Part shown: positions 21,398-24,394 of the stretch, piece after piece | Position numbering within the stretch: the stretch's first letter is position 1 | Layout: the number at the start of each line of letters is the position of its first letter | IMG/VR virus record: IMGVR_UViG_2737471850_000006 | DNA: 30,164 nt | Source of the DNA: a virus | Lineage: Duplodnaviria > Heunggongvirae > Uroviricota > Caudoviricetes | Strand: one strand, 5' to 3' | The notes under the pieces: generated by a model | What the model was told of the DNA's origin: nothing | What the model saw: only the letters and a program-made list of their open reading frames with translations | Databases searched by the model: none | Position numbers and translations under genes: made by a program

Positions 21398-21754
21398 ATG
21401 GCTGGAAATCAGCGTCAGGGGGTGGCGTTCATCCGTGTCAATGGCATGGAGCTTGAATCAATGGAAGGTGCCTCCTTCACGCCTTCCGGCATCACCCGTG
21501 AAGAAGTGACCGGCTCGCGGGTTTATGGCTGGAAAGGTAAACCACGTGCCGCAAAAGTGGAATGCAAAATTCCGGGCGGCGGTCCCATCGGGCTGGATGA
21601 AATTATCGACTGGGAAAACATCACGGCAGAGTTTCAGGCAGACACCGGTGAAACCTGGATGATGGCGAATGCCTGGCAGGCAGATGAACCGAAAAACGAC
21701 GGCGGCGAAATTTCGCTGGTACTGATGGCAAAACAAAGCAAACGCATTGCATAA
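21398..21754 (+). CDS. M: Tail tube protein (118 aa)
   Basis: RBS AAGGAG; position immediately after the sheath gene. Confidence 0.8.
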   Translation: MAGNQRQGVAFIRVNGMELESMEGASFTPSGITREEVTGSRVYGWKGKPRAAKVECKIPGGGPIGLDEIIDWENITAEFQADTGETWMMANAWQADEPKNDGGEISLVLMAKQSKRIA

Positions 21755-21763
21755 GGGGAAACA

Positions 21764-22198
21764 ATGGACGAAATGAATTTAGGTCCTGAAGCACAGGAAC
21801 TGCATGACAGCATTGTGGCAGAAATTCAGTCCGGCGTGCTGAAACTGAAAGACGGCCTGCCGTTCGGCACCGGTGACGAGACTGAAATGCAGTATGACGT
21901 GACACTGCGTGAACTGACCGCAGGCGATCTGATTGATGCCCAGGCGGCTGCTGAAAAGCTGGTAATGAGCAAGGAAGGCCCGATACTGGTCAGTTCCCCT
22001 TCCCGGATGGGACTGGAAATGCTGCGCCGACAGATTGCCAGCGTGGGCTGCATCAAAGGCCCGTTGTCGATGGCGCTGATTCGTAAACTGTCCGCTGATG
22101 ACTTCCAGCGTCTGTCGCTGGCCACAGAAATGTACGACATGGCTGTGGCAGCATCGCTGACACAAGAACGGGGGCGAGTGGCTGCGGTGCCGGAATGA
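21764..22198 (+). CDS. Tail assembly chaperone (144 aa)
   Basis: RBS AAGGGGA. Located between the tube and tape-measure genes, the conserved chaperone position. Confidence 0.6.
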   Translation: MDEMNLGPEAQELHDSIVAEIQSGVLKLKDGLPFGTGDETEMQYDVTLRELTAGDLIDAQAAAEKLVMSKEGPILVSSPSRMGLEMLRRQIASVGCIKGPLSMALIRKLSADDFQRLSLATEMYDMAVAASLTQERGRVAAVPE

Positions 22199-22328
22199 TA
22201 TTGAGAAAGCGGCGACAGCGATTGGCGTTATTCTGAAAAGTGGCCCGGAATGGGCCTTGTCTCTCCCGTTGTCCCGCTTTTTCCGGCACTGCCAGCAGGC
22301 TAAAACCCTCTCTCAATATCACCGTTAA
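22161..22328 (+). other. Alternate-frame open window: candidate programmed-frameshift extension of the tail assembly chaperone
   Basis: The +1 frame (equivalently -2) relative to the chaperone is open from 22161 to the TAA at 22326-22328 (56 codons), covering the whole apparent 144-bp gap before the tape-measure start. It overlaps the chaperone 3' end near a CGGGGGC run. Confidence 0.35.
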
Positions 22329-22342
22329 ATCAGGAAATCTCT

Positions 22343-24394
22343 ATGACCGGGAAACGCTTAAAGGCGTCTGTCATTATTGATCTTAATGGCAATCTTTCCC
22401 GGCGTTCCCGCCAGTATTCGAACCAGATAAACGCCCTGTCCCGTAGCGGGCAAAGTTCCCTTCGTGCCCTGCGTATGGAGGTTGTGCGCGTTTCTGGTGC
22501 CATTGACAGAATGGGTTCTCTGTCAACCCGTACATTCCGAATGCTGTCAGCCGGGGCGCTGGGTATCGCTGGCGTGGGTTACACCGCCAATAAACTGTTT
22601 ATTGGTGCAGCCGCCCAGCGTGAGCAGCAGATCATCGCCATGAACTCGCTGTATCACGGCGATAAGGCCAGAGCGCAGGCCATGATGGCCTGGGCGAAAC
22701 AGAACGCAAAAGAAACCACCTGGGGGCTGGGCGGCGTTCTGCAGGAAATCCGCACATCAACGGCGTTTGGTATGAATGATGAACAGGTAAAACAGTTCAT
22801 CACCATGCTACAGAACCAGGGCGCGATGCATGGCTGGGATTTACCCACCGCGCAGGGGGCTTCGTTACAGTTCAAACAGATGTTTGCCCGCCAGCAAATC
22901 ACCGCGGCGGATGCCAACCTGCTGACCGGCTATGGTATCAACGTTTACAAGGTGCTGGCAGATGCAACGGGTGAGGATGAGAAAAAAATCCGCAAGTTGG
23001 GTGAAAAAGGCAAGCTGGGCCTGAAATCCATCCTGACGGTATTCCGGACCCTGCTGGAGCAGTCAAAAGGCGCACAGGCGGCTGCCATGAACTCCTGGGA
23101 CGGGATGATGGCCCAGATGGAGGGCAACCTGCTTGAGTTTCGCACGAAGGTGGCAAACAGCGGCCCCTTTGAAGAAATCAAGAACGAGATGCGCCGGGTG
23201 CTTAACTGGCACGACATGGCGGATAAATCCGGGGAACTTGACGCACTGGCAGAAAACATTGGTCAGAAATTTCTGACCACGTTCAGAACGGTAAAAATCG
23301 CGGCGCAGGAATTATGGCGCTGGCTGAAACCGGGTAAGGATGCGCTGGCATGGGTTGACCAGAATATTGTCAGCCTGAAAAAACTGGCTGCTGTTCTGGT
23401 GTCTGTCTGGCTTGCCAATAAAGCCCTGAGAGCAGGCTGGGCCGTGGCAAAACCCTCATGGCAGGTTGCCAGTTATCCGTTTAAAACCGGGCGTCGTATG
23501 TGGCGCTGGATGCGAAACCGCAAACGTGGGCAGGCAGGTCTGCCGGTCCCGGATGCCATGACGTCTGAGGCGCTGTTGCAAGGCATCGGCATTCAGCGTG
23601 TGTTTGTCACTAACTGGCCTCACGGGTTCGGCGGTTACGGAAGCGGTGGCCGTGGTGGCCGCACCCGGAAAGGCAGAGGCATGACGCCCCTGTTACCCCG
23701 CCAGCCGTTGCTGTTGTCGGGGCCACAGTCGCTGGCACTTTCGCCCCCCCGTTCAGTGCCTGCCTTACCGGCCCCGAAGACGCTGCCGTTACCCGGTAAA
23801 TCCGGTCTTCTGAGCAGGCTTGCAGGCAGTGCTGCCGGGCAACTGGTTACGGGAACGGTCGGAAAGCTGGCTGATGCCGGGCGTGCCGTTGGCGGGTGGT
23901 TTTCCGGTATCGGAAACAAACTTGCAGGCAGTGCGATCGGTCGGGTTGTGACAAAAGGTGCCGGGGCGCTGGGCTGGATGGGGAAAGGTGCCGGTCGTGC
24001 GTTGTCACGTCTGGGTGGCCCGGTAATGGGGGCACTCCAGCTTGCCCCCGTCCTGATGGATGAGCAGGCGTCAACCCATGAAAAAGCAGGCGCAATTGGC
24101 AGTACAGCCGGTGCATGGCTCGGCGGTGCCGTTGGCAGCCTTGCCGGACCGCTGGGTACGGTTGCCGGTGCCACGCTGGGCAGTGTCGCCGGGGAGTATC
24201 TGGGCGGTTTTGTAACCGACCTGTATCAGAAATGGACGGCCCCGGATAAGGAACCGCAGGAACAAAAAGTGAATGCGGAAGCCTCGCTGCGCGTCGAACT
24301 TGGCGAGGGGTTACGTCTGACCAGTTCCCGCGTCACCGAGGACGGTATGGGGCTGAATATTTACGCGGGCGATAACTACATTACAGGCTGGTAA
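22343..24394 (+). CDS. Y: Tail tape measure protein (683 aa)
   Basis: Long ORF after the chaperone. C-terminal third is Gly/Ala-rich with repeated GxxAG/LAGS-like motifs and a Pro-rich linker. Confidence 0.8.

Follow-up and report, generated by a model that had tools for sequence, protein, structure and literature searches.

The closest described counterpart of the locus analyzed here is the tail assembly chaperone gene gp41 of phage Mu (Mup41), which is extended into FS-gp41 (‘gene 41.5’) by a programmed –2 ribosomal frameshift. The Mu GenBank record (AF083977) carries a joined two-piece coding sequence, Mu_56, at coordinates equivalent to those described below, with the note ‘verified -2 translational frameshift in PMID 15469818; tail assembly chaperone frameshift product’. 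Xu, Hendrix, and Duda (2004; PMID 15469818) are the authors cited for the Mu –2 frameshift, and the review passages that treat phage tail assembly genes name Mu as the natural –2 case among them (PMC5009743, which also cites Baranov et al. 2006). The efficiency of the Mu event is given as ~2.2% (PMC3498833), in line with the ~2% quoted as the published in vivo estimate. A 10-mer of the Mu site by itself supported 14% shifting in a cell-free system, with a reporter that cannot distinguish –2 from +1 (bioRxiv 10.1101/2025.10.02.679949).

Other frameshifted systems share some of these properties and differ in the shift itself. The lambda gpG/gpGT pair is likewise encoded between the major tail or tube gene and the tape-measure gene, and likewise consists of a short, abundant product and a rare, C-terminally extended one made at few-percent efficiency. 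However, the lambda shift is –1, at the heptamer G_GGA_AAG, whereas the one considered here is –2 and occurs at a different slippery sequence; the lambda tail is non-contractile, and we detected no sequence similarity between the two systems, which fall into different Pfam families. The gpE/gpE+E’ pair of P2 (Phage_TAC_7, Phage_P2_GpE) is a contractile-tail chaperone pair in the same position that uses a –1 shift. The window’s gp41 matches Phage_TAC_7 weakly and below threshold (23.2 bits, cut-off 25), but its extension has no match to the P2 E’ family. A –2 shift that yields a trans-frame protein is also found in arterivirus nsp2TF, though this system belongs to a eukaryotic virus, is unrelated in sequence and function, and uses a different slip site that is stimulated by a bound protein.

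A Mu-type gp41 locus

We analyzed a window of 30,164 nucleotides (the whole stretch of viral DNA), concentrating on the region between its tail tube and tape-measure genes; the features described below lie on the + strand. Positions 21398–22500 are 97.8% identical to Escherichia phage Mu and 94–98% identical to D108, SfMu, and several Yersinia Mu-like phages. Judged by this similarity, the window comes from a Mu-type phage that is a close relative of Mu itself.

The gene order (tail tube, gp41, tape measure) is the same as in Mu. The tail tube gene (Mu gpM/Mup40; 21398–21754; 118 amino acids) was identified by the Pfam Tail_tube domain (PF10618, E=7e-35) and by the Mu annotation ‘tail tube protein’. 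It is followed by gp41 (21764–22198, with the TGA stop at 22196–22198), the ‘G’ analogue produced by standard translation. This 144-amino acid tail assembly chaperone matches Gp41_Mu (PF23746; E=2e-34, 118 bits, cut-off 27), belongs to PHROG 508 (phrog_508, ‘tail assembly chaperone’), and corresponds to Mu_41 in the Mu annotation. The tape measure gene (Mu gp42; 22343–24394; 683 amino acids), identified by TMP_3 (PF20155, E=2.5e-15) and by the Mu annotation, is preceded by a ribosome-binding site (AGGA, 22332–22335) that matches the one annotated for Mu_42. No solved structure was found among relatives.

The first-pass annotation of this DNA, which was made from the sequence alone, had drawn attention to the apparent gap between gp41 and the tape-measure ATG and had proposed that an open alternate frame within it encodes a frameshift-extended tail chaperone. 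The gap does span 144 bp (22199–22342), and the +1/–2 frame is open from 22161 to a TAA at 22326–22328 (55 sense codons plus the stop), so that it takes in the last 35 nt of gp41 before the stop and the stop codon itself. Translation of 22161–22331 in this register gives HKNGGEWLRCRNDIEKAATAIGVILKSGPEWALSLPLSRFFRHCQQAKTLSQYHR, followed by a stop. The –1 frame, as had been described, runs for 12 codons beyond the gp41 stop before it closes. A 55-codon open stretch is not in itself significant; its conservation is.

Joining 21764–22174 to 22173–22328 gives a 188-amino acid FS-gp41, in which the T extension (22173–22328, in the +1/–2 frame) reads G-EWLRCRNDIEKAATAIGVILKSGPEWALSLPLSRFFRHCQQAKTLSQYHR and ends at the TAA. 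The T extension matches PHROG 12783 (phrog_12783, E=5e-30). The corresponding 188-amino acid –2 product predicted for Mu is identical, letter for letter, to Swiss-Prot P0DJY4 (‘Probable tail assembly protein FS-gp41’). Over 22100–22360 the window differs from Mu at three bases. Of these, only 22269 lies in the T extension; the change there is silent in the T frame, and so are two differences in D108. The window and Mu therefore share the gene, the shift site, the flanking genes, and an identical T protein; their differences amount to three amino acids in the gp41 body (L/M, I/V, A/V), none of them at the recoding site.

We are highly confident, on the strength of the Mu_56 annotation, P0DJY4, and the comparative tests described below, that this locus carries the Mu-type programmed –2 ribosomal frameshift in its tail assembly chaperone gene. 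The three points of the first-pass annotation, a frameshift-extended chaperone in the +1/–2 frame, the G run as its slip site, and Mu as an unusual –2 case, are all supported, the last by the AF083977 note and by what the reviews say of Mu. The gp41/FS-gp41 arrangement that occupies the gap is already published and annotated in databases, and it is not new. It is a textbook natural example of –2 frameshifting in bacteria; as a discovery, it carries no weight.

The shift site and the direction of the shift

The shift site, CGG_GGG_CGA in the gp41 frame (22169–22177), is identical in Mu and D108. Its codons begin at 22169 (CGG), 22172 (GGG), and 22175 (CGA), and the run of five Gs occupies 22170–22174. 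A G-rich run in the overlap had been put forward as a possible slip site, with coordinates that were one base off: the run is present, but ACGGGGGCG lies at 22168–22176. Its role as the slip site is borne out by the Mu annotation and product and by conservation of the motif, and its position is the junction in both database versions of FS-gp41.

To place the site in a broader context, we assembled a set of gp41 homologues drawn from collections of viral sequences, genomes, and metagenomes, obtaining 153 loci with 81 distinct sequences. Their hosts include Escherichia, Kluyvera, Erwinia, Pluralibacter, Vibrio, Aliivibrio, Aeromonas, and Bilophila. In ~70 of the 81 distinct loci, five Gs followed by a CGA that is in the gp41 frame are found within the last 60 nt of the chaperone ORF, and the +1/–2 extension in these loci continues for 33–47 codons beyond the gp41 stop. 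The exceptions are two loci in which the motif lies more than 60 nt from the stop, plus slip-site variants and assemblies with four Gs. Every subfamily keeps the +1/–2 register of the extension, the slip motif, and the overlap between the extension and the gp41 3’ end.

Codon choice around the site is narrower than the encoded residues require. Where Arg is encoded just before GGG, the codon is always xGG (CGG or AGG), and GGG is followed in every case by the rare CGA rather than by one of the common Arg codons. Since protein constraint would also permit CGU or CGC before GGG and AGA after it, this pattern points to a constraint at the nucleotide level. The pattern fits a need for five Gs, which –2 re-pairing would use, and for a slow codon in the A site.

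In the proposed mechanism, most ribosomes would translate gp41 from 21764 to 22198, terminate at its stop, and release the 144-amino acid chaperone. A small fraction would slip two bases back on the five-G run at CGG_GGG_CGA, either through the P-site tRNA-Gly alone, which would move from GGG at 22172–22174 to GGG at 22170–22172 with CGA waiting in the A site, or through a tandem slip of the P-site tRNA-Gly and the A-site tRNA-Arg, the latter moving from CGA to GGC. The shifted ribosomes would then read the +1/–2 frame to the TAA at 22326–22328 and produce the 188-amino acid FS-gp41, which would consist of the chaperone body and a C-terminal ‘T’ domain of ~51 amino acids. The slowly decoded CGA and an RNA hairpin 3–4 nt downstream may tune the efficiency of the event. 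If lambda gpG/gpGT is a guide, the tape-measure protein gp42 would be coated by the N-terminal part that both products have in common, the tail tube protein, as the likely partner of the T extension, would be recruited by the rare T domain, and both gp41 and FS-gp41 would be missing from the virion.

The two routes correspond to a disagreement between databases at the junction (22172–22178 of the window; 2275–2281 of homologue locus L001). Swiss-Prot P0DJY4 reads ...QERGGEWL..., with a Gly that implies the one-tRNA slip, whereas GenBank UIW09302.1 reads ...QERGREWL..., with an Arg that implies the two-tRNA slip. Both curated versions are 188 amino acids long and both imply a –2 shift. The Gly/Arg disagreement may be a new, small point.

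The alternative that survives best is a +1 slip, in which tRNA-Gly would move from GGG to GGC in the P site, or tRNA-Arg from CGG to GGG, to yield a 187-amino acid product with one Gly fewer. Because –2 and +1 shifts enter the same frame, they are inseparable by sequence, and the direction rests on the experiment cited in the Mu record (PMID 15469818). Re-pairing of GGG with GGC is possible at two of three positions, two four-G homologues (L067 and L069, described below) fit a +1 slip at least as well as a –2 slip, and the cell-free reporter is blind to the distinction. Nevertheless, the note in the Mu record and the relevant statements in the reviews have –2 as experimentally verified, and both curated products have the –2 length; an exact-sequence look-up found no database match to the 187-amino acid product. 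The five Gs, including those of the preceding xGG, are moreover kept in ~70 of the 81 loci, and a –2 slip needs them whereas a +1 slip does not. We consider a +1 slip improbable.

Several variants of the site were observed among the homologues. The two four-G forms are CAG_GGG_CGA (L067, 1166–1172) and TCG_GGG_CGA (L069, 1172–1178); in these, –2 re-pairing would be poorer, with a first-position mismatch, and they might use +1. One locus has seven Gs (CAG_GGG_GGG_CGA; L025, 1869–1878), and another has AGG_GGG_CGA (L127). Within the window, a second copy of GGGGGCGA is present at 1116–1123; the chance expectation is ~0.5 copies per strand in 30 kb.

Independent gene or extension

The T frame could instead be a separate small gene with its own start codon and no frameshift. 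The D108 record (GQ357916) annotates it in this way, as a 48-amino acid gene 41.5, and in PHROGs the T part makes up a separate family (phrog_12783). The T frame of the window, however, has no ATG or GTG and only two late TTG codons (22257 and 22269), so the extension is not independently startable in any ordinary way. The start of D108 gene 41.5 corresponds to a CTG, and the listing of open reading frames for the window shows none of at least 30 amino acids in the T frame. Conservation of the gp41 3’ overlap and the slip motif in every subfamily also counts against a separate gene, which we regard as very improbable, more so than a +1 slip.

Database treatment of the extension is uneven. The frameshift product is absent from RefSeq NC_000929, from the Yersinia phages MT591577 and MT374852-6, and from 44 complete E. 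coli genomes, in which PGAP annotates only a ‘phage tail assembly protein’ and a ‘tape measure protein’ over this stretch. In PHROGs the T part (phrog_12783) is listed under ‘unknown function’, and in most records the stretch either is left unannotated or carries a stray small ORF. The combination of G5-CGA with a 33–47-codon +1/–2 frame could serve as a simple rule for annotating FS-gp41 across the family.

In a few sequences gp41 and T are fused in frame, always with a G run of four (P0001, P0002, P0046, P0006, L024 at 1883, which is the same as L060, and L026 at 1901). We rejected these as natural fused variants, as all have four Gs rather than five and are probably sequencing or assembly errors. 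L024 (Kluyvera YDC799) also lacks single bases in other homopolymers (of G in T, and of C in the tape-measure gene), which is why the four-G fusions look like sequencing errors.

These fusions bear on the possibility that RNA polymerase, rather than the ribosome, slips on the G run, so that a minor share of the transcripts, one G shorter or two Gs longer, would encode the fusion by standard translation. Homopolymer runs can cause transcriptional slippage, several assemblies do show the four-G in-frame form, and a cell-free assay that couples transcription and translation is compatible with such an event. Yet a run of five Gs is far shorter than known bacterial slippage tracts, and the four-G fusions occur in DNA assemblies, where they have the appearance of errors. 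The literature, as given in the Mu record’s note, names the event translational. Polymerase slippage is in our estimation still less probable than a separate gene.

The alternate frame is conserved as a protein

Loss of the alternate frame among homologous prophages had been named as the observation that would speak against the proposal. The frame is not lost: besides the motif in ~70 of the 81 distinct loci, sequence comparison indicates that it is under purifying selection as a protein. Across 16 sequences of the enterobacterial group, and with the comparison restricted to the extension beyond its overlap with gp41, the T frame had a dN/dS of 0.18, compared with 1.17 and 2.70 for the remaining forward frames, and most variable sites fell at the third codon position of the T frame. 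In 21 diverged loci drawn from all subfamilies, the T frame contained no stop codons, whereas each of the other five frames contained 13–41. Peptide motifs are kept across genera as well, with GGE/GGD at the junction, GPEWA, and LPLSR/LPLRR within an LP[LIV][SR]R[LF] pattern near the C-terminus.

A non-coding gap (a spacer, regulatory hairpin, or terminator, with a frame open by chance) might have been suggested by the strong structure of the region, by a terminator-like hairpin at 22242–22256, and by the fact that 55 open codons in a row are not an unusual chance event, but it is refuted by these comparative data (dN/dS, third-position variation, stops, and conserved peptides), and with terminator-like sites no more numerous than in shuffled sequence we give it next to no credence. 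The search of the gap returned no promoter-like site and two terminator-like hairpins, a number not above that in shuffled sequence; one of the two is the apical stem of the large hairpin described below and lies inside the coding frame.

Two further candidate products were rejected. An extension in the –1 frame adds few codons, and a varying number of them (1–12 in most groups). An antisense ORF (22053–22322) is unconserved, with antisense frames carrying 13–41 stops across relatives.

In the Bilophila group (L031, L073–L077), reading on in the –1 frame beyond the chaperone stop likewise gives ~90 open codons, which probably mark the beginning of a tape-measure ORF that overlaps the T region. 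In one Mu-like locus (L114, ~1100–1200), the T frame is cut to 30 codons by an internal deletion and the downstream RNA is unstructured (z=+1.4), possibly because this is a decaying prophage.

A candidate RNA hairpin downstream of the shift site

We identified a candidate conserved RNA hairpin at 22177–22301, a putative modulator of shifting, from a minimum-free-energy fold, covariation, and folding z-scores in relatives. The hairpin starts 3–4 nt after the CGA and takes in most of the T coding region. It comprises an outer stem (22181–22194 with 22282–22296), an inner stem (22205–22220 with 22267–22281), and an apical stem (22242–22246 with 22252–22256). For the 186 nt from 22160, the minimum-free-energy fold has a z-score of –2.56. 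A scan of 22050–22450 against Rfam returned no known RNA family.

We examined covariation in an alignment of 19 enterobacterial-group sequences (alignment A4). The hairpin’s pairs could form in 87.9% of cells, compared with 39–49% when partners were slid by 1–3 columns, and the covariation score was 0.161 versus 0.06–0.09 for the slid versions; these values are to be read with three points in mind: the structure comes from a member of the alignment itself, the sequences are related, and both arms are coding. Eight pairs change on both sides among the 19 sequences. One of the pairs runs through G-C, G-U, and A-U, changing Cys to Tyr (TGC to TAT) on the upstream side and His to Tyr (CAC to TAC) on the downstream side.

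A second test, which is less dependent on the alignment, used 27 representatives with pairwise identities below 85%. The 120 nt after the CGA had a mean z-score of –2.7, with 17 of the 27 below –2, versus a mean of –0.3 and one of the 27 for the 120 nt upstream (Wilcoxon p=8e-6). The Vibrio, Aeromonas, and Bilophila subfamilies have predicted hairpins in the corresponding place as well, built from stem sequences that are unrelated.

Structure 3’ of the site is a plausible modulator of shifting, as the folding predictions would have it. The bare 10-mer shifts in the cell-free system, so the hairpin is unnecessary for shifting as such. That the –2 frameshift of the Gp41_Mu family is tuned by a conserved, apparently undescribed RNA hairpin together with the invariant, slowly decoded CGA is a tentative suggestion, and we lean against it. 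The conserved, long downstream hairpin may nonetheless be a new small point, and together with the junction residue it offers a modest mechanistic lead for recoding studies.

An imperfect inverted repeat flanking the gap had also been noted. Both arms are present where they had been placed, TATTGAGAAAG at 22199–22209 inside the T coding frame and CTCTCTCAATA at 22308–22318 in the variable C-terminus of T, and they are complementary at 10 of 11 positions; the repeat is, however, poorly conserved. We rejected it as a functional stem: the minimum-free-energy fold does not contain it, its arms pair in 69% of cells, and in sequences beyond the Mu group several of its positions are unpaired in most cases. 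In Mu itself, the repeat could extend the base of the hairpin.
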